IMG/VR virus record: IMGVR_UViG_2718217885_000013
DNA from: a virus
Lineage: Duplodnaviria; Heunggongvirae; Uroviricota; Caudoviricetes
Direction: 5' to 3' (one strand)
Length of the DNA stretch: 45,686 nt
Below are positions 2,335 to 36,026 of the stretch, one piece after another; the stretch's first letter is position 1, and each line of letters starts with the position of its first letter. Below the pieces are notes generated by a model that was given only the letters and a program-made list of their open reading frames with translations, was not told the origin of the DNA and ran no database searches. A program made the position numbers and the translations under genes.

Positions 2335-2919
2335 TTACTCCCTGACAGGGTTCGTAGGCCACTCAATATCAGGTGCAGTTGATGTATCAACACGGTTCAG
2401 CAACACCCGATACTTTTTCCAGGCTTCCAGCAATGAGGTTTCTTCCTCCGTTGCGATTTCCAGATCTACAGCATCCTGAAGTGGCGCAATATGCTCACTG
2501 GCTACCTGCATCAGGCTGTTTTTTATTTCTTCCGCCTCCCGGATCCGGAACAGTTTTTCTGCTTCTGCATCTTTCACCCAGGCTGTGCCGTTCCACTTCT
2601 GAAACTCCCCTTCCGGCGATAACCAGGTAACATTTTCCGGTAACGGACCGAGTTCAGAAATAAATAACTCGTCCCCTGACGCTACGTCATAAACCGTTTT
2701 ACCCCGATGGTCTTCAACGAGATGCCACGATGCCTCATCACTGTTGAAAACAGCCACGAAGCCAGCCGGAATATCTGGCGGTGCAATATCGGTACTGTTT
2801 GCTGGCAGACCTGTATGAGGCGGAATATATGCATCACCTTCACCAATAAATTCATTAGTTCCGGCCAGCAGATTATAAATTGTTATGGTCCGTGGTTGTT
2901 CACTCATTCTGAATGCCAT
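2335..2919 (-). CDS. tfa: Tail fibre assembly protein Tfa
   Basis: 194-aa translation recognised as lambda/e14-type Tfa; directly downstream of stf. Confidence 0.9.
2389..2500. repeat. Direct repeat copy 2 (within tfa)
   Basis: Partner of 1341-1451. Confidence 0.7.
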
Positions 2920-5900
2920 TATGCAAGCCTCACAATATAGTTAAATGCGATGTTTTTGACGGTGTTTTCCGCGTTACCAGCAGCGTTAACGGTGATGGTG
3001 TGTCCATGTGAGCCAATCGCAACGGAGTGCGTATGAGCACCAATACCGACAGTATGTGCGTGTGCACCTGCGCTTGCAGCAGTACCCGATACAGAGTGCG
3101 TATGAGCGCCTGCAGAAGAAGTGTTAACACTGTATTTAGAATAATCAGGTGATCCACTTCCCGGAGCACCACTGGAACCACCTGAAACAAATGTCATCGA
3201 ATGGGTATGTGCACCGGCTGAAGCAGCCGTACCGCTAACACTATGGGTATGTGCACCAGTGTTATTCGTGGATTTAGTGCCGTAATCAAACGATGATGTG
3301 GTTTTCGTCCCCAAATCCGTACTGGATGCGCTGGCGCTGTGGGTGTGCGATTTAATGCCGTCCTGTTCCTGAGACAATACGGCACGACCACTGGCGGGCT
3401 TGCCCTTAATCGTCCAGCCACGCATATCAGGAATAACGCCTGACGGATAAGCCACTGCAAGTTTCGGGTATGCAGATTTGTCAAAAGTCTGCCCCTGCAT
3501 CAGGGCATAGCCAGACGGAACGGTATCTGATGGCCACGGGATTGGTGCGCCGACTGGGTAGCTTTCTGGTGGAAGATTTTTCGAGGTATAAACTTCTGCC
3601 CAGTCATCCTCAAAACCATAACCGTCTCTTGAAGAACGGTAGAACAGACCACCATTTCTGTAATGCGCCTTCATCTGCAGGGTCCGGCAACTTCCGACTC
3701 CGGTATAGAAGTTAACCAGAATATAGCTGTCGCCAGAGCGAGTGACATTGTAAGCGCCTGATTCGGCATTCCATGGAACGCCACCATCCGCATCGGCATA
3801 TGTATCCGTTGCCCTTCTGGCAAAAGCAGCCACATGCGCGGCGGTTAAAGTAATATCTTTGGAACCATCAAACTCAACACCAGAAACCCGTCTTGGCGTT
3901 TGCAGCTTTGTTGCTGTTAATGCATTACCGTTCAGACTTGCGGACAGTTTGGTTCCAATAACCAGTTCGCCGGTTGCGTTATCAATAGCAAACGGTCTTA
4001 ATGTATTCCAGCCACCATAAACATCACCTTGATTGGTAAGCAGCAGGTAAGTTTTAGCGCCATCATTACGCCATAATGCACCATACTCTCCACCTATCAT
4101 TCGAATCTGATTACCACCACGCGCTACAATTTCGTCTGTGGCAAAAAGTTTTTTGCACGACAAGTTATCGTTAACGATTAACGAATGAGACTCATAAAAA
4201 CCACGCCCACTCTTAAAATCAAGGATAACGTCCGCCGCGATACATTCAGTCGCTGGATTTGTTGCCCCAAACTTATAGGTCGTATCATTAACAACGAGAT
4301 CAGCACCAGGTGCGGATATTGACAGGCCATCTTCGATAAACGCAAAAACAGGGAAAGCAGCGCCATCAACATAGAACACAGAGCGCAAATCATCGCCCTT
4401 ATTACTCATCATTATTGAGTGGATGGCTCGTTCATTGTTTTGATATTGCCAGAACATTCCATAAGCATAACGCCCCCTGTCAGTCCAGCCACCAGGCATA
4501 ACAAATCCGTTAAACTCGCAGTTATTCATCGGATCGCCTGCGGTTCGCGTTGCCGTGGTGATAATGACCCTTGATGCCAGTTCGCTTACTGAGCCAGCAG
4601 AACGCATAACAACAACAGGGTAATATTTTCCAGATGTTGCACCTGCAGGAGCGTTAACCCGCACATAACGCATACCACGCTTATCAGCAAAGTCTGTTTT
4701 ACTGACCGCGTTAATGTTGTTCAGGAAGCGTCCCTTATCGGGTATATCAGTGCCGTTCTGGTCTTTCTGCAGACGTTTCTCTGCATTGTCATAGGCTGAT
4801 TTTACTGCCTTTGGCGTTGCCGCCAGCGTTTCAGACGTACTGTTGGTCGCACTGCTGAGCTGTACTATCCCCTTTTTCGTCGTGCTCGCATCCTCAAGCG
4901 CCACGGCGGATGCAATATCCTCTGCCCGTTTTGCTGCTGTCTCGGCGCGCGTTGCCGCGGATTCCGCCGTACTTTTGCTCTGAGCTGCCGCCGTCGCACT
5001 GCCAGCTGCCTCTGTCGCCTTCGTGGATGCCGTCGTGGCGCTGCCCTTCGCTGCTGACGCCTGTCTGGTCGCCTCATCTTTTGAAGCAGACGCCGATGAT
5101 GCCGATGACGCCGCCGAACTGGCTGACGATGCGGCAGCCGTTTTTGAGGATTCTGCGCTGGTTTCCGACGCTTTCGCGTTCGTTTCGGATGTCTTCGCTG
5201 CGGAAGCTGACCTCGCTGCTACCGTGGCCTGTTCAGTGGCTTCGCCAGCCTTCGTTGTGGCTGTTGAAGCGGATGATGCGGCGCTTTCTGCCGACTTTCC
5301 GGCAGCGGTGGCACTGGCTGAGGCCTGCCCGGCATTTGTTGACGCGGCGCTGGCAGATGAGGCAGCCGCTGTTTTTGAGTCTGCTGCTGCGGAGGCACTC
5401 TGTCCCGCTGCCGTCTCAGAAGACTTTGCGTTCGTCTCGGACGTTTTTGCCGCCTTCGCGGAAGTTCCTGCCGCTGTTGCCGAGGAGGCTGCACGACTGG
5501 CGCTCGAGGCTGCGTTCGTTTCTGATGATTTCGCTGCCTCTTTTGAAGCCGACGCATCCCTGGCTGAAGTGGCTGCTTCTGACGCTTTCGTGGTCGCGGT
5601 GGATGCAGAAGTGGCTGCTGATTGTTGTGACGCTGCCGCATTCGTTTCTGACGTTTTCGCCGCACCGGCACTGGTAGCCGCCGCGCTTTTTGAGGACTCT
5701 GCAGCGGCAGCACTTTTTGATGCTTCAGTGGCCTTTGCTGATGCCGTTCCTGCGCTGGAAGACGCTGACTGAGCAGATGATGCAGCCTGTCCGGCTGACG
5801 TGCTGGCGGCACGTGCTGAGCCTGCAGCATCGGTTGCATGGGTTGCCGCCTCACGGGCAGATGTGCTGGCATCACTGGCTGACTTCTTCGCGGCTGCCGT

Positions 5901-6333: not shown

Positions 6334-6933
6334 TCAGAACTTATAACCGACACCCACGATGAAACCGTCAGTGCGCCAGTCGCCACTGCCGGAGCCTTCA
6401 TAAGCAATATCAATGGCCACGGATTCGGTCGGGTTAAACTGCACGCCAGCTCCCCACGCCAGAGACGTGTTGCTGTGGCGACCGTCATCACTTCCGGTCA
6501 GCACATCGTGCGTTTTCCCCTTGTTGTCAGTTACGCGAAGATAATCCCCGGAGAAAGTCGACACACGGCTGTAAGCCACACCCGCCATCGCATACGCGCT
6601 GAACCATTCATTCACGCGCACAGACGGCCCCGCCATCACGCTGAACCAGCGGTTACGCACGGAATCTTCATGCCAGCGGGTATCGCTGTAATGGGTCAGC
6701 TGGCGATTCTTGTCTCCTGCATAGCTGAATGACGTCACCATCCCCAGTGTGTCCGTAAACTCATAACGGTATTTCACGTTAATCCCGTTCAGATCATCGC
6801 TGCCGGGAACGTTCGTCGAGGCATGAAGATACCCCGCGCTCAGCGTGGACTGATGTTCAGACGCCCATGCAGGCGCACCGGATACGGCCAGACAAATGGC
6901 TGCGGACAAAATGGCGGCATAAAGTTTACGCAT
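6334..6933 (-). CDS. lom: Outer membrane protein Lom (Ail/Lom family)
   Basis: 199-aa ORF with signal peptide and beta-barrel-type sequence; canonical position after J. Confidence 0.9.
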   Translation of the reverse strand: MRKLYAAILSAAICLAVSGAPAWASEHQSTLSAGYLHASTNVPGSDDLNGINVKYRYEFTDTLGMVTSFSYAGDKNRQLTHYSDTRWHEDSVRNRWFSVMAGPSVRVNEWFSAYAMAGVAYSRVSTFSGDYLRVTDNKGKTHDVLTGSDDGRHSNTSLAWGAGVQFNPTESVAIDIAYEGSGSGDWRTDGFIVGVGYKF

Positions 6934-6999
6934 AATTACCTCTCGCTTTTCTGCAATAAAAAAGGCGTCATTTCTGACGCCCGTTATGGGTTATAAAAT

Positions 7000-10401
<3,402 letters not shown>

Positions 10402-26657: not shown

Positions 26658-27524
26658 CTAAGCGAGGTTCTTGTTTTCAAATTGTTCCGGACTGAGGCCG
26701 CCACACCAACTGTGCCGCCGCCACCGATTGTAATCACATTCGATATAATTAAACACCGTTGCCCGCATTATTTCCCGGCTGATAAAGTGTTCTCCATGGA
26801 TACATTCCACTTTCAGCGAATGAAAGAAGCTTTCCACGCAGGCATTATCGTAGCAGCAACCTTTTGCGCTCATACTTCCACGCAGATTATGCCGCTTCAG
26901 TTGCGCCTGATAATCTGCTGAACAGTACTGGCCTCCACGGTCCGTGTGAACGATAACGTTCCGGGGCCTCTTACGCCGCCACAGCGCCATCTGCAGGGCA
27001 TCGCAGGCCAGTTGCGCCGTCATGCGTGGCGACATTGACCAGCCAATAACGGCACGTGACCACAGGTCAATGACCACTGCCAGATACAGCCAGCCTTCAT
27101 CTGTACGTAAGTACGTGATGTCTCCTGCCCACTTCTGGTTCGGGCCACTGGCGTAAAAATCCTGCTCCAACAGATTTTCTGACACAGGCAGGCCGTGTGC
27201 GCGGTAGCTGACCGGGCTGAACTTCCGGGAGGCCTTTGCCCTCAGTCCCTGACGGCGCAGGCTTGCCGCCACGGTTTTTACGTTAAAGGGGTAACCCTGA
27301 GCACGCAGTTCATCCGTCAGGCGTGGGGCACCGTAACGCTGTTTTGACCGGGTAAAAGCCGCGAGGACAACGCTGTCGCAGTGTTGGCGGAACTGCTGAC
27401 GCGTGCTTATCCTTGTCCGCCGCTGACACCACGTATACCAGCCGCTGCGGGCCACCCGGAGCACGCGGCACATTGCTTTGATGCTGAACTCAGCCTGATG
27501 TTTTTCAATAAAGACATACTTCAT
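26658..27524 (-). CDS. insF: IS3 transposase OrfB (InsF)
   Basis: 288-aa DDE integrase-type translation recognised as IS3 InsF. Confidence 0.9.
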
Positions 27525-27820
27525 TTCAGGCGCTTCGCGAAGTATGTCGCGGCCTTTTGGAGGATAGCCAGCTCTTCATCCCGTTCTGCCAGCTGGCGTT
27601 TGAGACGTGCAATCTCGGTAGACATCTCCAGTTCACGTTCAGAAGACGTCTGCTGATTTTGCTGTTTACTGCGCCAGTTGTAGAGTTGTGATTCATACAG
27701 GCTGAGTTCACGGGCTGCGGCAGTAACACCGATGCGTTCAGCAAGCTTCAGGGCTTCACTGCGAAATTCAGGCGAATGCTGTTTACGGGGTTTTTTACTG
27801 GTTGATACTGTTTTTGTCAT
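27521..27820 (-). CDS. insE: IS3 transposase OrfA (InsE)
   Basis: 99 aa from [25 protein letters not shown]; HTH; overlaps insF in the -1 frame. Confidence 0.9.
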
Positions 27821-27911: not shown

Positions 27912-28118
27912 TCAGTCAACCACCAGGGAATAATCCTTCATATTATTATCGTGCTTCACCAACGCTGCCTCAATTGCCCTGAATGCTTCCAGAGACACCT
28001 TATGTTCTATACATGCAATTACAACATCAGGGTAACTCATAGAAATGGTGCTATTAAGCATATTTTTTACACGAATCAGATCCACGGAGGGATCATCAGC
28101 AGATTGTTCTTTATTCAT
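27912..28118 (-). CDS. ybcW: YbcW-like small protein
   Basis: 68-aa ORF at the DLP12 ybcW position; assigned by position and length only. Confidence 0.55.
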
Positions 28119-28403
28119 TTTGTCGCTCCATGCGCTTGCTCTTCATCTAGCGGTTAAAATATTACTTCAAATCTTTCTGTATGAAGGTTTGAGCACGTTG
28201 GCCTTACATACATCTGTCGGTTGTATTTCCCTCCAGAATGCCAGCAGGACCGCACTTTGTTACGCAACCAATACTATTAATTGAAAACATTCCTAATATT
28301 TGACATAAATCATCAACAAAACACAAAGAGGTCAGACCAGATTGAAGCGATAAAAACGATAATGCAAACTACGCGCCCTCGTATCACATGGAAGGTTTTA
28401 CCA

Positions 28404-28814
28404 ATGGCTCAGGTTGCCATTTTTAAAGAAATATTCGATCAAGTGCGAAAAGATTTAAACTGTGAATTGTTTTATTCTGAACTAAAACGTCACAATGTCT
28501 CACATTATATTTACTATCTAGCCACAGATAATATTCACATTGTGTTAGAAAACGATAACACCGTGTTAATAAAAGGACTTAAAAAGGTTGTAAATGTTAA
28601 ATTCTCAAGAAATACGCATCTTATAGAAACGTCCTATGATAGGTTGAAATCAAGAGAAATCACATTTCAGCAGTACAGGGAAAATCTTGCTAAAGCAGGA
28701 GTTTTCCGATGGATTACAAATATCCACGAACATAAAAGATATTACTATACCTTTGATAATTCATTACTATTTACTGAGAGCATTCAGAACACTACACAAA
28801 TCTTTCCACGCTAA
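28404..28814 (+). CDS. ybcV: YbcV-like protein (DUF1398-type)
   Basis: 136 aa from [18 protein letters not shown]; the track ORF is extended upstream by a TTG. Confidence 0.7.
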
Positions 28815-29104
28815 ATCATAACGTCCGGTTTCTTCCGTGTCAGCACCGGGGTGTTGGCATAATACAATACATGTACGCGCTAAACCCTGTGTGCATCGTT
28901 TTTAATTATTCCCGGACACTCCCGCAGAGAAGTTCCCCGTCAGGGCTGTGGACATAGTTAATCCGGGAATACAATGACGATTCATCGCACCTGGCATACA
29001 TTAATAAATATTAACAATATGAAATTTCAACTCATTGTTTAGGGTTTGTTTAATTTTCTACACATACGATTCTGCGAACTTCAAAAAGCATCGGGAATAA
29101 CACC

Positions 29105-29398
29105 ATGAAAAAAATGCTACTCGCTACTGCGCTGGCCCTGCTTATTACAGGATGTGCTCAACAGACATTTACTGTTCAAAACAAACAGACAGCAGTAGCA
29201 CCAAAGGAAACCATCACCCATCATTTCTTCGTTTCTGGAATTGGGCAGAAGAAAACTGTCGATGCAGCTAAAATTTGTGGCGGCGCAGAAAATGTTGTTA
29301 AAACAGAAACCCAGCAAACATTCGTAAATGGATTGCTCGGTTTTATTACTTTAGGCATTTATACTCCGCTGGAAGCGCGTGTGTATTGCTCAAAATAA
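29105..29398 (+). CDS. bor: Bor lipoprotein (serum-resistance factor)
   Basis: 97 aa with lipobox LITGC; matches lambda Bor. Confidence 0.9.
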   Translation: MKKMLLATALALLITGCAQQTFTVQNKQTAVAPKETITHHFFVSGIGQKKTVDAAKICGGAENVVKTETQQTFVNGLLGFITLGIYTPLEARVYCSK

Positions 29399-29429
29399 TT
29401 GCATGAGTTGCCCATCGATATGGTCAGCT

Positions 29430-29891
29430 CTATCTGCACTGCTCATTAATATACTTCTGGGTTCCTTCCAGTTGTTTTTGCATAGTGATCAGCCTCTCTC
29501 TGAGGGTGAAATAATCCCGTTCAGCGGTGTCTGCCAGTCGGGGGGAGGCTGCATTATCCACGCCGGAGGCCGTGGTGGCTTCACGCACTGACTGACAGAC
29601 TGCTTTGATGTGCAACCGACGACGACCAGCGGCAACATCATCACGCAGAGCATCATTTTCAGCTTTCGCATCAGCTAACTCCTTCGTGTATTTTGCATCG
29701 AGCGCAGCAACATCACGCTGACGCATCTGCATGTCAGTAATTGCCGCGTTCGCTAGCTTCAGTTCTCTGGCATTTTTGTCGCGCTGGACTTTGTAGGCGA
29801 TTGCGTTATCACGGTAATGATTGACCGCCCATGACAGGCTGACGATGATGCAGATAATCAGAGCGGATATAATCGCGGTTACTCTGCTCAC
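29430..29891 (-). CDS. Rz: Spanin inner-membrane subunit Rz (i-spanin)
   Basis: Near-identical to lambda Rz from [10 protein letters not shown]; GTG start overlapping the R stop (GTGA). Confidence 0.85.
29489..29671 (-). CDS. Rz1: Spanin outer-membrane lipoprotein Rz1 (o-spanin), embedded in Rz in the +1 frame
   Basis: 60 aa; [49 protein letters not shown] matches lambda Rz1. Confidence 0.9.
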
Positions 29892-30385
29892 TGTTGCCCC
29901 CACAAACAGACTTCACGCTCAATCTCACGACGAGTCATCAGGCCTTTCCATTGCTTACCGCCAGCGTATGTCCAGCGACGCAGCTGATCACATGCGCCTT
30001 TGATATCGCCCTGGTTTATTTTGCGAAGAAGCGTCGATGTTCTAAAATTGCCAGCACCCACGTTGTAAACGAATGAGTAAAGAGCACCGCGCGTTGTTTC
30101 CGGTATATCGACTTTGATATACGGGTTAATTTGTCTGGCGACAGTGGCAAGGTCTTTATTCAAGAGTGCTTTGCATTCTGCTTTGGTATACGTTTTACCG
30201 AGCATGATGTCTTTTCCGGTGTGTCCGTGACATACAGTCCATACACCAACAATATCTTTGTATGGTATGTAGCTGACACCTTCCAGACCATCGTTACCAC
30301 TTGGGCCAGTGATTAACACTGATGCTATAGCAATTGCTCCGCCACCAATAGCAGCAGCAACGGCTTTTCGTAATGATGGAGGCAT
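29888..30385 (-). CDS. R: SAR endolysin (T4-lysozyme-type, phage 21 R-like)
   Basis: 165 aa; weakly hydrophobic Gly/Ala-rich N-terminal signal-anchor-release segment followed by a lysozyme domain. Confidence 0.9.
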
Positions 30386-30600
30386 TATTCACCTCTCGCA
30401 GCCTTGCGCTTATCTTCTTTAATCTTGAAATAAAGGTTTGTCAGGTACGTCAGCAGGCCAAATACCAGGCTACCCAGCACACCTATTGCTGCCCACTGTG
30501 AGGGAGTGACTTTATCGAGCAGCTGTAAAAACCAGTAACCGGCACTACCTGCTGAGGTGCCATAGGCGACTCCAGTTGTTAACTTATCCATGAATTTCAT
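30385..30600 (-). CDS. S: Pinholin S (phage 21-type) with dual-start motif MKFM
   Basis: 71 aa from [26 protein letters not shown]; two transmembrane segments; GAGGTGGGG Shine-Dalgarno; the track ORF extends 15 codons upstream. Confidence 0.85.
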
Positions 30601-31188
30601 AACCCCACCTCGCAGACAAAGCGGGTGTAAATTGAGGGAATACAACGTATCGCAAAAAAGCAGAAACGTAACTGACTCCGAGTCAGTGAATAACTCAGGT
30701 ATTGAGTTATCAGCTAATATCGAGACTCAAAAAATGGAAAAACCAGCTCGACGGCGGGTTTAAGCTGTGTGACGAAGTAACCACTCTTAACAGCATAACC
30801 AATTTTTTACGTACGTAAACCACTGAATGATATTTATGAGAATGCTACCGAGTGTTCAAAACATCACCACAAATACATAAGAAAACTTCAACAAATAACC
30901 AATAAATAATTTCCAGTGTTATTTTTAGCTGGTTTAAATTAAACAGACGAATTATAGAACCACCATAAATAACAGCCATTAATATAAATTAGCTAATAGA
31001 TTTATTTTTGTTCAAATAAGAGCCATAAATAGGTTTCGATAGAAAAAGTTCAGATAAAAATAGAGATCTACTTCACAAATTAAATGAGAAACTAAAACTT
31101 ACATCTTGAAATAATCACATTGATTAGATGAATATTTATCGCGCAGTGACATCATTTTTTAATAATAGTTCAAAAAAAAGGGCTCACG

Positions 31189-32286
31189 ATGAAAAAATTA
31201 ACAGTGGCAATTTCTGCTGTAGCTGCATCAGTACTGATGGCGATGTCTGCTCAGGCAGCTGAAATTTATAATAAAGACAGTAACAAGCTGGATCTGTACG
31301 GGAAAGTTAATGCCAAGCACTACTTTTCCTCTAACGATGCAGATGATGGTGATACTACTTATGTTCGTCTGGGCTTCAAAGGCGAAACCCAAATCAACGA
31401 TCAGCTGACTGGTTTCGGTCAGTGGGAATATGAATTCAAAGGCAACCGCGCTGAATCTCAAGGTTCCTCCAAAGACAAAACCCGTCTTGCATTTGCAGGC
31501 CTGAAATTCGGTGACTACGGCTCAATCGATTACGGCCGTAACTACGGTGTAGCATACGACATCGGTGCGTGGACTGACGTTCTGCCAGAATTCGGTGGCG
31601 ATACCTGGACCCAAACAGATGTGTTCATGACTGGTCGCACCACTGGTGTTGCAACCTATCGTAACAACGACTTCTTTGGTCTGGTTGATGGTCTGAACTT
31701 TGCTGCTCAGTACCAAGGCAAAAACGATCGTAGCGATTTCGATAACTACACCGAAGGTAACGGTGATGGCTTCGGTTTCTCTGCTACCTATGAATACGAA
31801 GGATTCGGTATCGGTGCAACTTATGCGAAATCTGATCGTACCGACACTCAAGTTAATGCAGGGAAAGTTCTTCCTGAAGTATTTGCTTCCGGTAAAAATG
31901 CAGAAGTTTGGGCCGCAGGTCTGAAATATGACGCTAACAACATTTACCTGGCCACTACCTATTCTGAAACCCAGAATATGACTGTATTTGCTGATCACTT
32001 CGTTGCTAATAAAGCTCAAAACTTCGAAGCTGTTGCACAATATCAGTTCGATTTCGGTCTGCGTCCGTCCGTTGCTTACCTGCAATCTAAAGGTAAGGAT
32101 CTTGGAGTATGGGGCGATCAGGACTTAGTCAAATATGTTGATGTAGGTGCAACCTATTACTTCAACAAAAATATGTCTACTTTCGTTGATTACAAAATCA
32201 ACCTGCTTGACAAAAATGACTTCACTAAAGCACTCGGTGTAAGCACTGATGACATCGTTGCTGTAGGTCTGGTTTACCAGTTCTAA
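31189..32286 (+). CDS. nmpC: Outer membrane porin NmpC (OmpC/OmpF/PhoE family), full length
   Basis: 365 aa with signal peptide and general-porin sequence ending in YQF; sits between Q and S, antisense to the late operon. Confidence 0.9.
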
Positions 32287-32294
32287 TCTGATTA

Positions 32295-32336
32295 CGAAAA
32301 AGATATGTTGCGGGAGGCTTTGCCTCCCCAACATAT
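32295..32336 (-). terminator. Intrinsic terminator on the late-operon strand about 140 nt downstream of Q (tR'-like)
   Basis: Minus strand: imperfect 16-bp stem (ATATGTTG.GGGAGGC / GCCTCCC.CAACATAT) followed by CUUUUUCG. Confidence 0.5.
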
Positions 32337-32423
32337 AAGTGGCTCCCTCAAGCCACTTCCTTTAGGAGCACAACCTTGCTTCTAACTATATAAACCTTCT
32401 GTTATATATTACCCTTTATTTTT

Positions 32424-32448
32424 GGGGGCGTTGCAACGCCCCATTTTT
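32424..32448 (+). terminator. Intrinsic terminator on the nmpC strand
   Basis: GGGGCGTTGCAACGCCCC followed by ATTTTT. Confidence 0.55.
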
Positions 32449-32475
32449 AATAACTTTTAGTAAACAACTGGCATA

Positions 32476-32859
32476 TTAATTAGAGTTATTAACAACGATA
32501 TCCATCTCTAACCGGATATCTAATGCCATTAACATCCCTTCAATTATACCCTCAGCCTTCTGTAACCTTTTCCCGATATAACCATCAGAGCAGCAATGCT
32601 TACCTGCCAGTGACATGAATGTCATACCGACTACATAATAATCTACTAATAAATCGTGCAAATCGCTGTTGTTCTTTTTCAGACGGGCCATGCACCCGCA
32701 AATGATCATCGCGTCATCGTCACAACATTGCGGGCGAGATTTTACTTTTGAAGTAATTAATCCCTTAAAACCGGCGGCAATGGACGACCAGGTCACATCT
32801 TCATGATTATTAGCCGCCCACGCTCCCCAACGCTCAAGAACCATCTGAATATCACGCAT
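32476..32859 (-). CDS. quuD: Late-gene antiterminator Q (DLP12 QuuD / phage 82 Q type)
   Basis: 127 aa from [18 protein letters not shown]; Cys-rich zinc-binding region; directly upstream of the late/lysis region. Confidence 0.85.
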
Positions 32860-32944
32860 CAACTTACTCCACAAAAATCAGACCAAAACGCCAATTACAA
32901 GCAAAAATCAACAAAACAGTATTAGTTGATTGTTATCTCTGACT

Positions 32945-33067
32945 TCATACTCCTGCTCCTGTCAGGGTTTTGGCGTAACTCTTCAGTATTCGGTAATCGG
33001 TCAAAACAGAACCGGGGAAACGATATAAGCGCAGGCGCACCCAGCGGCGGCGAAGACGTTCTGCCAT
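32945..33067 (-). CDS. Small basic ORF (40 aa) in the ylcG position between rusA and Q
   Basis: ATG-initiated ORF MAERLRRRWVRLRLYRFPGSVLTDYRILKSYAKTLTGAGV read by hand; no clear Shine-Dalgarno. Confidence 0.3.
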   Translation of the reverse strand: MAERLRRRWVRLRLYRFPGSVLTDYRILKSYAKTLTGAGV

Positions 33068-33081
33068 ATAAGACTCAAACA

Positions 33082-33444
33082 TCATTCATCTCCCAGTTCA
33101 GTGATGGTCAGTTCCAGCCTCCCACCTTTGGTAACAGGCATCTTCACAACGCGGTAATCAACGACCTGAGCATCATCCAGCCAGAAACCTGCTTTGGTGA
33201 GTGCGTCAAAAGAGGCTTTTTGTAGATTATCCAGGTCACGGCGACGGCGATCCGGCATGTGGCACTCAATGCGGATTTTCACAGGCATAGCCAGACCGAT
33301 ATCCAGCATTGAGCCTTTAATGATTCGGGCGACGTTATCGCGGTATGCCTGCCCTTCTGCGCTGATGTGCGTGCGCCCTCGATTATGGCGGTAGTAGCGG
33401 TTATTGCTCGGCGGCCAGGGTAGTGTGATGTGGTAAGTATTCAC
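33082..33444 (-). CDS. rusA: Holliday junction resolvase RusA
   Basis: 120 aa; [26 protein letters not shown] matches RusA. Confidence 0.95.
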
Positions 33445-33731
33445 GCCTTAATTACCCCCTCTTTCAGCCAGATAACCTGCGTTCTCGCCATACCTTCCAG
33501 CGCGCATTCTTTTGCATATCCAGCGTCAACAAAATGCGTGCGGCGGTCGATTTCGTCGTGGCAGGCAGAACATGCAATGGTGGCAATCAGGTCTGGCGGT
33601 TTCGTACCGGTGCCGCACAATCCAGTCAGCCGGATATGTGCCAGTACAGACGTTTCAGGGTTGCCATTACATACGCCAGGGATTCTTACCTGGCATTCCC
33701 GACCACGCGCTGCTTTTCTCAAATCAGCCAT
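33441..33731 (-). CDS. ybcO: YbcO-like protein (DUF1364-type, Cys-rich, putative nuclease)
   Basis: 96 aa from [23 protein letters not shown]; the track ORF extends 13 codons upstream. Confidence 0.8.
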
Positions 33732-33894
33732 GATTCCTCCTTGCTGCCAGTCGCAACCATTTTTTATCAACCAGGCTAGCGGTATATCCGAGCAGTGTTG
33801 GTATTTCGGATGGCTTCAGCTCAGGTTTACGCTTACGACGATTTGGTACTTTGTAGATGTGTCCGTTCATGACACGAATAAGCGGTGTAGCCAT
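33724..33894 (-). CDS. ninE: NinE-like protein
   Basis: 56-aa ORF translated by hand ([56 protein letters not shown]); tightly coupled to ybcN (TAATG) and ybcO (ATGGCTGA); below the track cutoff. Confidence 0.75.
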   Translation of the reverse strand: MATPLIRVMNGHIYKVPNRRKRKPELKPSEIPTLLGYTASLVDKKWLRLAARRNHG

Positions 33895-34349
33895 TACGCC
33901 TCCTGCTTGTCGCGCAGCAGCTGGAACTCGCAGCTCTGCGGAATAGTCAGGTGGCAGCCAATATTCATCGCCCAGGCTTCAACCTTACACAGGAAGACAT
34001 ACATCTCTCCGGTATCAAGATCGGAGGTATGGCGTAACGACTGGATAGTAGTGATTTCGCCGGTTACGACATCAACCAGGTCCTTGGTTTCATAACCGAG
34101 GTATGTGTGTTTGAGAGCATCTTTTACCCATGCTGCGGTAGCGAACGATTTCCCCCTGCTGATGAGGTATTCACTGATTTCGCTGTACCACATGTGGCTG
34201 AGTGCATTCTGGGAAAGACTGCGTCTCTCTCGCCACGGTTTAAGCACCATGCGAAAGCATTTGCCGTCTTCCAGATAAGGCTGGATCTGCTGACCGATAG
34301 CGGTGAAGTTACCGCGATGCAATTTGATGCCATCTTGTGGGAGGTTCAC
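33894..34349 (-). CDS. ybcN: YbcN-like protein (DUF1367-type)
   Basis: 151 aa; GTG start preceded by a GGAGGTG Shine-Dalgarno. Confidence 0.8.
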
Positions 34350-34555
34350 GCTTCACCTCCACAGAGGTCAAACGCTAGATGCAAAGAATTGCAGGTGCAT
34401 TTCTGCATCTGTGAAAGGAGAAGATAGTTTGGATTGTATGTGCGCATAAACGTCCCCGTTTAGCGCAGAAGTCACCGGAGTTGTTCAGGCTCCGATTACT
34501 TAATTATGGCAAGTTGATTATCGCAAATCAAAGGTTTTAATTGTGCTTTATTCTT

Positions 34556-34756
34556 TCAAGCGTTTCCTTCATACCAAAGCCTATAAAGTTTTTCTTCTTC
34601 GTTTGGGTTAATAGGCTCACCATGTTTTAATTTTTCAGTGTACAAAATTGTTGAACAAATCGCGGAAGTTAATCCAGTGATCGCCATCTGCTGCAGATCG
34701 GATTTTTGTGTCCCCCCCAACAGACGATCTCCCATCCATGTAATAATTGTATCCAT
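34556..34756 (-). CDS. Hypothetical 66-aa protein in the moron slot
   Basis: ORF only; no family recognised; preceded on its strand by about 300 nt with no ORF. Confidence 0.35.
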   Translation of the reverse strand: MDTIITWMGDRLLGGTQKSDLQQMAITGLTSAICSTILYTEKLKHGEPINPNEEEKLYRLWYEGNA

Positions 34757-35343
34757 GCTTCAGCCCTTCTTAGTAAATAGTGTGTAGGGCGACTGAAGGA
34801 CCGAGTTTATGCTTTTTCGCATTGCTTTCAGTTAGTAGACCGGTATCGCACCGGAAACAATCCTACGGCAAATTGGTTGTCTGACCTCTCGGTTTTTCGT
34901 GCATTAACCGATACCCACTACAGTCTCGGCGAAAGCTGCACACCCCCAAGGTGTACTGGTAGCACTCGGCACAGCCTAGCGCGCCACTTTCTTCTCACTA
35001 TCCAGTCTAATTTTATCCCCTAGTCAGACACTCAGATGTAGTGCTCCGCAGCGGCATGCGGGGGAATACAAAAACTCGGACAAAATTGGGCCCTCCTTTT
35101 TGAATCACTCGCGGGGATGTAGTTATTAATACATGGGAAAAGATCTGTTTTCAAATCCAACATTATATGGTTTCAATACCACGGGGTGGCTATGTGTTTC
35201 TCATTATTATTTACAATCTACTGTAATCGCTCCGAACGCAAATGCGTCAATACTCGAATCAACTGATCATCCTGCCACGACTGAAATCTCAAATAGGCCG
35301 TTTCTCAAGTAAGAGATTTTGAATGCATTATTGGCTACTGAAA

Positions 35344-35368
35344 TAAAAAACCCAGCACCAACTGGGTT
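35344..35368 (-). terminator. Intrinsic terminator directly after the 164-aa secreted-protein gene
   Basis: Minus strand AACCCAG-uuggug-CUGGGUU followed by UUUUUAUUU. Confidence 0.65.
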
Positions 35369-35385
35369 CATATGAAATTTTTTTG

Positions 35386-35880
35386 TCATTTCCAATTGCA
35401 AGACTGTGAAATTTTTTCCACAACCTTATCAATCTCAGACAAGTCAAACTCAACTACTTGCATAGTTGATCCATAAGGTTCAAACCCAAAAATAGCTTTT
35501 TTATGCTTAGCCAAGGTCTTTATAAATTGTATTGGTTGTGGAGCAAATGCAGAATCACCGCCTTCCCCACCTCCCCAAGCACTCTTGACCGGCTTTCCGC
35601 CATCTAACCGCACTGTAATTCTTGGGTTGTCCGAACCCATATAATCATTGAATGATAAATAGGCATCTGTTTTGTTATCACTACAACGCAACACCAGTGA
35701 AGTTGCACGATCAGTACCTGCTTTGTTATATGAATCTGGTGATAAATTAAGAGCCACAAAGTCAGTCTGGTCAGTCATTTTATTTATCTCAGACTTTGTT
35801 ATCCACGGCCCTAACTTCTCTACACCAGCATTTGCAGTAAACGAGGCACTTATGACAAAGGCTATAATAAATTTTCTCAT
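35386..35880 (-). CDS. Hypothetical secreted/periplasmic protein (moron)
   Basis: 164 aa with a typical Sec signal peptide (MRKFIIAFVISASFTANA); own terminator; no family recognised. Confidence 0.6.
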   Translation of the reverse strand: MRKFIIAFVISASFTANAGVEKLGPWITKSEINKMTDQTDFVALNLSPDSYNKAGTDRATSLVLRCSDNKTDAYLSFNDYMGSDNPRITVRLDGGKPVKSAWGGGEGGDSAFAPQPIQFIKTLAKHKKAIFGFEPYGSTMQVVEFDLSEIDKVVEKISQSCNWK

Positions 35881-36026
35881 AACCCTATCTCCTTGGATTT
35901 AAAGAACTAAATATTATCAAGTCTCTTGCCACTAGAAAACCCACTTTATTTCCAAACTCTGATGGCATTCCTGAAAATCCGCTTCATACTCACTTGCCCC
36001 GCCCTATCATCCTGAGTAGCTAACCG

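Follow-up and report, generated by a model that had tools for sequence, protein, structure and literature searches.

The nmpC/lc porin cassette of DLP12/PA-2-type lambdoid prophages of Escherichia coli is known biology, and its porin genes (nmpC in DLP12, lc in PA-2) are textbook. IpeX, an RNA from a porin 3' UTR, lowers OmpC and OmpF, and Lc-mediated down-regulation of OmpC has reportedly been seen for PA-2. IpeX is cited as an ompC regulator in PMC3333887 and PMC5745476. In K-12, the nmpC promoter is active and its activity is lost on deletion of -199 to -1 (PMC11677980). Detection of nmpC mRNA after IS excision is described in bioRxiv 10.64898/2026.08.19.745717. For the DLP12 lysis operon, a regulatory region of its own has been cloned, and control by a Q-type antiterminator and RpoE is reported (PMC7918800, citing Rueggeberg 2013, 2015). 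For the Stx phages, dRNA-seq and Term-seq of Sakai place the PR' transcription start site (TSS) 258 nt upstream of tR' (PMC7547250). Gene order alone suggests that the porin gene of DLP12-type prophages lies antisense within a Q-dependent late operon; the comparative evidence given here points to a late promoter beyond it, and the correction of this gene-order inference is the useful result.

The window, the whole stretch of 45,686 nt that was analysed, is an almost complete E. coli lambdoid prophage of the DLP12 site, in reverse orientation and with head and tail genes retained. E. coli 09-00049 is 100% identical across the region compared, and is annotated with the order intD...quuD-porin-essD-rrrD-rzpD-bor...appY. 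Most of the 2.8-kb region is found in ~2,350 of 5,426 complete E. coli genomes and in 35 phage records. The arrangement of spacer plus porin is carried by 36 phage records, and as these include isolated plaque-forming phages, it is compatible with lytic growth. Features are listed in Table 1.

Table 1. Features of the Q-to-bor region of the window, with strand and the basis of each assignment.
Feature	Position	Strand	Basis
quuD (Q antiterminator)	32476-32859	-	RefSeq start; ORF 32476-32874; Pfam PF06530, 4e-53
nmpC intrinsic terminator (predicted)	32425-32450	+	Terminator scan: 7 pairs, 6 GC, then ATTTTTAA
nmpC 3' UTR, ipeX region of DLP12/PA-2: four stem-loops, then terminator	32287-32450	+	Fold z = -8.5
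Late-strand hairpin (32336-32303) and C-U5 tract; candidate terminator of Q/early-right transcript	32295-32336	-	Folds
nmpC/lc porin gene, 365 aa with signal peptide	31189-32286	+	ORF; Pfam; RefSeq WP_000737283.1 'porin'
PnmpC promoter region (predicted)	30990-31188	+	K-12 deletion data; PA-2 record
pR' (essDp): -35 TTTACG 30819-30814, 16-nt spacer, -10 TATGCT 30797-30792	30792-30819	-	Homology
Promoter-proximal terminator hairpin of pR' module (predicted)	30729-30761	-	AAACCCGC-CGTCGA-GCTGGTTT and U-rich tail
Second candidate terminator, pR'-S leader	30653-30687	-	ACTGACT-CGG-AGTCAGT, then UACGUUUCUGCUUUUUUG; fold, alignment
Holin S (essD), P21-type, dual starts 30600 and 30591	30385-30600	-	Pfam Phage_holin_2_1, 3.5e-35; RefSeq essD
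R	29888-30385	-	
Rz	29430-29903	-	
bor	29105-29398	+	

The gene identities are established. As the earlier note had it, an intact porin gene lies antisense with Q on one side and the lysis genes on the other: its ORF matches the Pfam profile Porin_1 end to end (E 1.8e-156, profile positions 1-337 of 337) after a signal peptide, without frameshift or IS insertion. Residues 24-365 align end to end with solved structures of OmpC, OmpK36, PhoE and OmpF, and the protein is identical to Lc of phage PA-2 at 362 of 365 residues (99% protein identity). By these alignments it is a general bacterial porin of the OmpC/OmpF/PhoE family, NmpC/Lc/OmpD subgroup. QuuD is 81% identical in amino acids to Q of H-19B across residues 1-120, only the C-terminus being divergent, and has a distant structural match to the Q21 structures 6jnx and 6p18 (PDB Q21 E 7.6e-07). 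PF06530 is the Q21 family (PMC9388147), and by homology QuuD is a Q21-family antiterminator (PF06530) of the H-19B/933W subgroup.

The cassette shows the hallmarks of the DLP12/PA-2 nmpC-lc moron, namely a location between Q and S, opposite orientation, an ipeX-type structured 3' UTR and a terminator of its own. The PA-2 lc record carries annotated regulatory sites, of which the CRP site maps to ~31060-31080 of the window. This annotation and the literature (PMC11677980; bioRxiv 10.64898/2026.08.19.745717) agree with the earlier proposal that the porin is expressed in the lysogen, in that expression from its own promoter in non-induced cells would fit both.

Both strands of the whole 189-nt spacer between Q and nmpC fold into extensive structure (z = -5.8 and -8.5). 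It aligns at ~97% identity with K-12 DLP12, PA-2 and 434B, the differences falling mostly in loops, and among phage records it occurs only alongside the porin. The part that forms the 3' UTR of nmpC we take to be IpeX, per Castillo-Keller et al. 2006. A scan of 28000-36000 against Rfam (E <= 1) returned no family, either for this 3' UTR or for the pR' leader. On the plus strand, a GC-rich hairpin stands directly before a U-tract (GGGGCGT-TGCA-ACGCCCC at 32425-32442, followed by AUUUUUAA; fold -13.9 kcal/mol), 25 nt from the Q stop codon. A separate plus-strand terminator had been claimed for the late leader; the terminator is found by the scan, but it belongs to the porin gene and not to a late leader. 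It is predicted to be nmpC's own, closing its 3' UTR.

The opposite strand carries the late-strand hairpin, ATATGTTGGGGAGGC-AAA-GCCTCCCgCAACATAT at 32336-32303, followed by C-UUUUU-CG to 32295. Both the fold (-22.7 kcal/mol, z = -6.3, none of 200 shuffles as stable) and the distance of its 5' end from the Q stop (140 nt) agree with the hairpin and U-run previously noticed there. By folding it qualifies as an intrinsic terminator, with a U-tract of just 4-5 U after a C; the bulge in its stem hid it from a simple terminator scan. The stem is kept among variants while bulge and loop vary; the short U-tract varies too, being 4 U or 5 U long, and about half of 93 related loci have the 4-U form. The hairpin is confined to porin-carrying phages, and on the plus strand the same positions form the first stem-loop of the nmpC 3' UTR. 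Its reading as tR' does not hold up, as there is no pR' homologue between Q and the hairpin, and the single pR' homologue lies ~1.5 kb further on. Most likely, the transcript of Q terminates at this hairpin.

Of the late promoter module known for this Q family (TTTACG-N16-TATGCT, a start region TAAGAG and a promoter-proximal hairpin), the window has a single copy (30820-30738, minus strand), between the 5' end of the porin gene and S, ~186 nt upstream of S and 1.65 kb past the Q stop codon, with nmpC between. A 44-nt degenerate pR' pattern has one match in the window and none in 100 shuffles. The segment 30820-30777 (minus strand) aligns with pR' of Sakai, 933W and H-19B, and the alignment of the window with Stx-phage pR' is colinear from the -35 through the hairpin. 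In a BLAST search with 30600-30900, 289 of 355 matching records fall within a 60-80% identity band, and 30820-30738 matches the 3' end of the Q gene or the sequence just after it among the Stx-phage matches listed. OP797663 labels the matching site pR' and PV189402 labels it 'Promoter'; both records also mark a terminator. The TSS is predicted at 30787-30785, within TAAGAG; back-calculation from the 258-nt TSS-to-tR' spacing on the Sakai sequence (NC_002695.2, the paper having used NC_002695.1) places it at the corresponding site there, in TAAGAG and 5-7 nt past TATCAT. By hexamer score alone, pR' (8/12) is no better than two weak sigma-70-like matches in the Q-nmpC spacer (TTGCAA-N19-TAATAT at 32436-32406 and GTAATA-N16-TATAGT at 32412-32385), and a simple promoter scan returned nothing relevant, missing pR' at 8/12. 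Where the pR' homologue lies, and that it is unique in the window, is established; its activity and TSS in the prophage of the window, and its dependence on Q, are predicted. From homology and the reported control of the DLP12 lysis operon, we infer that pR' at 30819-30792 is the cognate promoter of QuuD, and holin S would be the first gene in the Q-dependent late unit.

The promoter-proximal hairpin is weakened in the window by a C.U mismatch at 30745 (-5.3 kcal/mol, versus -11.5 for the K-12 allele). This allele is common to PA-2 and E. coli B and is present in 602 of 2,454 records. A hairpin with a T-run is predicted at this site in most of 28 loci, the stem sequences differing among genera. 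The second leader hairpin (30687-30653) is intact in the window and PA-2, and mutated or deleted in K-12. The mapped tR' of Stx phages (second terminator, +258) has no counterpart in the window.

A comparison across relatives shows what moves pR' away from Q. With an nhmmer profile of pR', exactly one match was found per locus. The match starts 24 to ~70 nt past the Q match in 24 of 30 QuuD-family gene copies, drawn from eight other genera including Shigella, Citrobacter, Trabulsiella, Pantoea, Xenorhabdus, Providencia and Morganella, and ~145 nt past it in a 25th. It is displaced only where antisense genes intervene, that is in DLP12-type copies (the window, and L012 and L013 with nmpC::IS5), SfII and C. 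braakii. Adjacency of pR' to Q is established as the rule in relatives without cargo, and the window departs from it. Among 80 viral contigs with identical Q, 75 have a single pR' match; in 73 of them it lies 1634-1654 nt past Q, and in the remaining two the distance is 2430 or 2965 nt. The three cargo genes of the C. braakii prophage have no match in Pfam, PHROG or PADLOC. An 11-bp imperfect direct repeat flanking the cassette (CAGTTGTTTAC / CAGTGGTTTAC) was considered as an insertion junction and rejected, the extended alignment being non-significant (165 of 2000 shuffles).

The earlier note had held that Q-antiterminated late transcription must cross nmpC antisense; the only pR' homologue being beyond nmpC in the late direction speaks against this. 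With a Q-dependent pR' beyond the porin gene, late transcription most likely starts past nmpC and does not read it antisense; pR' and nmpC would then be divergent, with nmpC outside the Q-dependent unit. The best explanation, and in our judgement a probable one, is that the porin gene is a self-contained moron upstream of pR' that late transcription does not cross. nmpC/lc would be an autonomous unit in the Q-pR' gap, with its own promoter, structured 3' UTR (ipeX) and terminator. QuuD would be made from the early-right operon and would act in trans on RNA polymerase starting at pR' (30819-30792, TSS ~30786, minus strand), carrying it through the leader terminator or terminators into S-R-Rz and the structural genes. 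Q and nmpC are convergent, and the two unidirectional terminators between them would be crossed: that of nmpC adjoins the Q stop codon, and the late-strand hairpin and its U-run adjoin the nmpC stop codon. The two hairpins are established as folds and termination at either is predicted; since the late-strand hairpin most likely ends Q/early transcripts, nmpC would be shielded from antisense read-through. Antisense transcripts of nmpC could come only from early (pR) transcription that runs on past Q, or from a weak putative promoter, and the Q-nmpC spacer may hold a minor promoter.

The reading suggested by gene order, in which a late promoter lies within 140 nt past Q, 32336-32295 is tR', and Q-modified polymerase runs antisense through nmpC to S and interferes with porin expression in lytic growth, appears very unlikely. 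A hairpin and U-run do stand at the right distance from Q, weak sigma-70-like matches are present at 32436-32406 and 32412-32385, and pR' abuts Q in lambda, 21, 82 and the Stx phages. However, every uninterrupted relative in this Q subfamily has the pR' module after Q, and the spacer shows no resemblance to it; the window's one copy of the module lies beyond nmpC, and the spacer travels only with the porin cassette. The best hexamer match requires a 19-nt spacer, and its -35 falls in a polymorphic hairpin loop (GCAA, GAGA or GAAA). Furthermore, an rrnB terminator placed in the K-12 nmpC/quuD spacer did not detectably change an antisense-dependent downstream phenotype (PMC11677980). A combination of two routes, with pR' at 30820 Q-dependent and N-like-antiterminated pR transcripts also running past Q, through 32336-32295 and antisense across nmpC, is possible but doubtful. 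Q and nmpC are convergent, with only a hairpin with a short U-tract between them. Processive antitermination systems override intrinsic terminators in lambda biology, and such override could apply here; in uninduced K-12, however, there is no sign of transcription into nmpC from the Q side (PMC11677980). If both routes operated, there would be transient antisense interference and some Q-independent late expression, comparable to N-dependent read-through in lambda.

The assignment of the late-strand hairpin as a terminator has its own alternative, namely that it is simply the first stem-loop of the nmpC 3' UTR/IpeX RNA, selected for the stability or function of the plus-strand RNA, with the T-run opposite it incidental. 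The hairpin does belong to a five-stem structured plus-strand 3' UTR; its minus-strand U-tract is short, preceded by C and reduced to 4 U in about half of related loci, and a window-specific substitution in a neighbouring stem gives G.U on the plus strand versus an A.C mismatch on the minus strand. Against this, the fourth stem has an A to G variant that the minus-strand fold accommodates but the plus-strand fold does not, and a convergent gene that ends in a -22.7 kcal/mol hairpin with U4-5 could plausibly have its terminator there. Across 28 spacer variants this G.U versus A.C asymmetry amounts to one case each way, and several variants resemble assembly errors. A non-terminator role seems rather unlikely, and termination of the Q transcript at this hairpin is preferred.

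If the porin gene is a moron upstream of pR', it would be insulated from late transcription and the site at which Q acts would be 1.65 kb away from the Q gene, the Q|pR' junction accepting cargo without loss of late control. This matters for late-promoter annotation in very many E. coli prophages of the DLP12/PA-2 type, and for predicting which cargo is induction-dependent (stx) and which is lysogen-expressed (nmpC). A broader conjecture, to which we give little credence at present, is that the Q-pR' junction is a recurrent slot for antisense lysogen-expressed cargo (E. coli DLP12/PA-2 phages carry the porin there, SfII a candidate defence pair resembling PDC-M53, and Citrobacter braakii three genes), with Q and nmpC RNAs possibly cross-regulating. 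With crossed terminators, the 3' UTR of the Q mRNA would be a perfect complement of the nmpC 3' UTR/IpeX RNA along ~150 nt, so that an abundant porin transcript and the Q transcript could regulate each other as RNA. Q might for example be damped in the lysogen, or IpeX neutralised on induction.

Among known systems, Shigella phage SfII likewise has Q, antisense cargo and a pR'-family element just upstream of S. However, its cargo is not a porin but two genes matching the PADLOC candidate defence system PDC-M53A/B, and the -35 of its pR' element has been replaced at the junction. The lambda morons bor and lom resemble nmpC in being lysogen-expressed from their own promoters and embedded in a lambdoid late region, but bor is antisense inside the late transcription unit, whereas nmpC would lie outside. 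The bor-type layout is the situation first supposed for nmpC.

The cryptic K-12 prophage DLP12 (qsr') occupies the same prophage site (intD...appY) with the same order (rusA-ylcG-quuD-nmpC(antisense)-essD-rrrD-rzpD-bor), and its Q-nmpC spacer and pR' region are nearly identical to those of the window. In K-12, however, nmpC is split by IS5, whereas it is intact in the window; K-12 has an intact pR'-proximal hairpin, mutated downstream leader hairpins and a 16-nt deletion, and head and tail genes are still present in the window's prophage. PA-2 lc (GenBank J02580) shares the pR'-S leader, which is 99.7% identical and includes the weakened hairpin allele; the porin agrees at 362/365 residues and the 3' UTR is the same, with matches to PA-2 lc of 97-99.7% in all. 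PA-2 is an active phage. The Stx phages 933W, H-19B and Sakai Sp5/Sp15 (Q-pR'-tR'(StxS)-stx) share a homologous Q (81% aa) and a homologous pR' -35, -10, start region and first hairpin, but their pR' and Q stop codon overlap, and the window lacks the +258 tR'/StxS segment. Their cargo genes (stx, tRNAs) follow pR' in sense orientation and are thus Q-dependent, whereas the cargo of the window lies upstream of pR', antisense, and is predicted to be Q-independent.

Judged from the position of the only pR' homologue, Q-dependent late transcription in this prophage most likely begins beyond nmpC, without antisense passage through the porin gene; transcription of nmpC runs towards Q and away from pR'. 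The window is 100% identical to E. coli strain 09-00049 over the region compared and, when reversed, is a near-complete lambdoid prophage occupying the DLP12 site, from intD to appY. RefSeq also annotates, in this identical genome, an IS3-family insertion adjoining ybcW (~26658-27820), a frameshifted ren, a TagO-like protein encoded at 35386-35880 (-) and a BamE-like protein encoded in the early region.

Genes and terminator-like elements around the Q-lysis junction of the window
Feature	Position	Strand	Remarks
rusA, then ylcG	rusA 33082-33444	-	late-direction order, before Q
Q, annotated quuD	32476-32859	-	PF06530, 4e-53
Plus-strand terminator	32425-32442	+	GGGGCGT-TGCA-ACGCCCC, then AUUUUUAA; terminator scan
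Late-strand hairpin	32336-32303	-	15-bp bulged stem; fold -22.7 kcal/mol, z = -6.3
Porin ORF	31189-32286	+	opposite strand, between Q and S
Holin S, annotated essD	30385-30600	-	P21-type; dual starts 30600 and 30591
R	29888-30385	-	after S
Rz/Rz1	29430-29903	-	after R
bor	29105-29398	+	downstream of Rz

The Q gene shares ~75-77% DNA identity with those of H-19B and 933W, and QuuD is 81% identical to the H-19B Q protein up to residue 120. At the stop codon of its Q gene, H-19B resembles the stretch of the window just upstream of S, and no counterpart was seen beside the window's own Q on reading the sequence. In a BLAST search of 30600-30900 (-), 30820-30738 aligns, in the listed Stx-phage records, at or just past the point where Q ends (3'). 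Their identity lies in the 60-80% band, which takes in 289 of the 355 records matched. Two of the listed Stx-phage records have a promoter and then a terminator annotated at the site, which one of them names pR'. The alignment with Stx phages is colinear through a -35 (TTTACG), a 16-nt spacer, a -10 (TATGCT in the window versus TATCAT in Stx phages), the start region (TAAGAGTGGTTAC) and a GC hairpin with a T-run. A 44-nt degenerate pR' pattern has one match in the window and zero in shuffles. dRNA-seq and Term-seq place the Sakai PR' start and its 3' end, respectively, at a distance of 258 nt (Sy et al., PMC7547250); counted back from the tR' U-run, this start falls in TAAGAG, 5-7 nt after TATCAT. 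The homologous predicted start in the window is 30787-30785 (-), upstream of S by ~186 nt; the start codon of nmpC, from which it points away, is ~400 nt distant. A CRP-binding site in the 1986 PA-2 GenBank record maps to this start region (+1 to ~+22, window ~30764-30784).

Thirty QuuD-family Q gene copies were gathered from genomes and scanned with a pR'-element profile, giving exactly one match per locus wherever there was any match. The element starts 24 to ~70 nt past the Q match in 24 copies, including those of one E. coli and one Shigella flexneri genome and of Citrobacter, Trabulsiella, Pantoea, Xenorhabdus, Providencia and Morganella species, and ~145 nt past it in C. amalonaticus. 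It is clearly displaced only in the window, in two K-12-like loci with nmpC::IS5 (L012 and L013), in a C. braakii prophage and in the Shigella phage SfII, which was analysed separately. The three remaining copies, two of them on contigs of 2-3 kb, have no pR' match. Of 80 viral contigs carrying an identical Q, 75 show one match each, 1634-1654 nt after Q in 73 and 2430 or 2965 nt after it in the other two. Adjacency in relatives, and displacement only together with antisense cargo, argue that Q directly followed by pR' is the ancestral order, and the sequence comparison indicates that the porin cassette was inserted between them in DLP12/PA-2-type phages. An 11-bp imperfect direct repeat (CAGTTGTTTAC / CAGTGGTTTAC, at 32470-32460 and 30825-30815 (-)) brackets the 1.65-kb porin cassette, both copies ending in the GTTTAC of the pR' -35. 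It may be a relic of the insertion junction; an extended alignment of the two copies is not significant (165/2000 shuffles).

The earlier note had late transcription reading antisense through nmpC, with the hairpin at 32336-32295 as a tR' candidate and the plus-strand terminator in the same leader. This model is not supported by the location of the sole pR' homologue, beyond nmpC and pointing away: Q-loaded polymerase starting there would have no need to cross nmpC, the hairpin at 32336-32295 cannot then be tR', and the plus-strand terminator is better read as ending the nmpC transcript. By hexamer matching alone pR' scores 8/12, a score equalled by two weak candidates for a minor promoter in the Q-nmpC spacer, TTGCAA-N19-TAATAT, whose -35 sits in a polymorphic hairpin loop, and GTAATA-N16-TATAGT. 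Antisense nmpC RNA could also arise during induction from early transcripts reading through under an N-like antiterminator. With late transcription beginning beyond nmpC, the two terminators together would insulate the gene as a self-contained moron. This fits reports that PnmpC is active in uninduced K-12 and that a terminator inserted in the K-12 nmpC/quuD spacer has no detectable effect (both PMC11677980), that nmpC mRNA appears on loss of the interrupting IS (bioRxiv 10.64898/2026.08.19.745717) and that the lysis operon of DLP12, for which a regulatory region of its own has been cloned, is reportedly under a Q-type antiterminator and RpoE (PMC7918800, citing Rueggeberg 2013 and 2015). The arrangement is carried by 36 phage records and, as isolated plaque-forming phages are among them, is compatible with lytic growth.

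Terminator-like elements do occur on both strands of the spacer, as had been proposed, the plus-strand one found by scanning (fold -13.9 kcal/mol) and the minus-strand one by folding. The latter, whose tail C-UUUUU-CG runs to 32295, 11 nt from the nmpC stop codon, most likely ends the Q (early-right) transcript. It may equally be simply the first stem of the nmpC 3' UTR, a reading favored by its short U-tract of just 4-5 U after a C. This tract (32297-32302) is polymorphic: about half of 93 related loci have C-TTTTAG, with 4 U, in place of the CTTTTTCG seen in the window, K-12 and PA-2. The 189 nt between the two stop codons form five stem-loops on either strand (z = -5.8 and -8.5, one per strand) and are ~97% identical to K-12 DLP12, PA-2 and the DLP12-recombinant phage 434B, with differences mostly in loops; in the phage collection the spacer is confined to 36 porin-carrying records. 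We take it to be the ipeX region, i.e. the nmpC/lc 3' UTR, the RNA of which is said to have been found by Castillo-Keller et al. in 2006 to lower OmpC and OmpF. In an Rfam search the spacer matches none of the families. IpeX is cited solely as an ompC-targeting RNA in PMC3333887 and PMC5745476. The terminators are crossed (32297-32450), each adjoining the opposite gene's stop codon. Use of both would give Q and nmpC 3' UTRs that are ~165-180 nt long and mutually complementary over ~150 nt, which, speculatively, could permit cross-talk between Q and nmpC at the RNA level.

Just downstream of pR', a hairpin with a T-run is predicted in most of 28 loci examined, with stems that vary by genus (CCCGCC/GGCGGG, CCCTGCCA/TGGCGGGG, CCTCGC/GCGGGG, CCTTGC/GCAAGG, CCCCG/CGGGG); its retention while stem sequences differ argues for a functional promoter-proximal terminator. 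The window hairpin (30761-30740 (-)) has a C.U mismatch at 30745 (GCTGG, not GCGGG), giving -5.3 kcal/mol versus -11.5 when intact, an allele also present in PA-2, in E. coli B strains and, among the matching E. coli records, in 602 of 2,454. In K-12 this hairpin is intact, but two downstream leader hairpins are mutated and 16 nt are deleted. Thus, with the one weakened in the window and the others mutated in K-12, the identity of the effective tR' is uncertain.

The earlier note's description of an intact porin gene antisense between Q and S agrees with the gene order and with a full-length Porin_1 match (1-337/337, 1.8e-156). The 365-aa protein aligns over residues 24 to 365 with solved OmpC, OmpK36, PhoE and OmpF structures, and is identical to Lc of phage PA-2 at 362/365 positions. 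K-12 DLP12 has the same layout, but its nmpC is broken by IS5. Of 5,426 complete E. coli genomes, 2,349 contain most of the length of the Q-porin-S region (2.8 kb), as do 35 phage records. This locus is one instance of the DLP12 nmpC / PA-2 lc cassette, with H-19B/933W-type Q and pR'; it is already known, and nothing in it is new in kind.

The junction between Q and pR' serves repeatedly as a cargo slot. SfII has two antisense genes between Q and a pR'-like element (1329-2943 of locus L010), matching PDC-M53B (2.8e-54) and PDC-M53A (2.1e-32) of a PADLOC candidate defence system, and at the junction its pR' element has a replaced -35. A QuuD-family Q of Citrobacter braakii ATCC 51113 and its displaced pR' element are separated by three antisense ORFs of 345, 106 and 132 aa (6653-8619 of locus L020), none with a Pfam, PHROG or PADLOC match. 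In Escherichia virus Lambda_2E9 (2919-3600 of locus L006), a QuuD-like Q with 88% nt identity diverges ~25 nt before its stop codon, so that the mosaic junction falls inside the Q 3' end; a different promoter-like sequence (TTGCTG-N17-TAATGT), a strong terminator and an antisense lipocalin Blc gene follow. The sequenced 434 isolate 434B (OL657227) gained the DLP12 ylcG-Q-nmpC::IS5-pR'-S segment by recombination, and this segment is annotated as a region of 434 non-homology. As 434B carries the displaced pR' plus an extra 1.2-kb IS5, the arrangement still supports a viable phage.

The gene that is truly antisense inside the late unit, the arrangement ascribed earlier to nmpC, is bor, as likewise in lambda. 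In Stx phages the cargo lies downstream of pR' in the sense orientation and is Q-dependent, whereas in the window it lies upstream of pR', antisense, and would be Q-independent.
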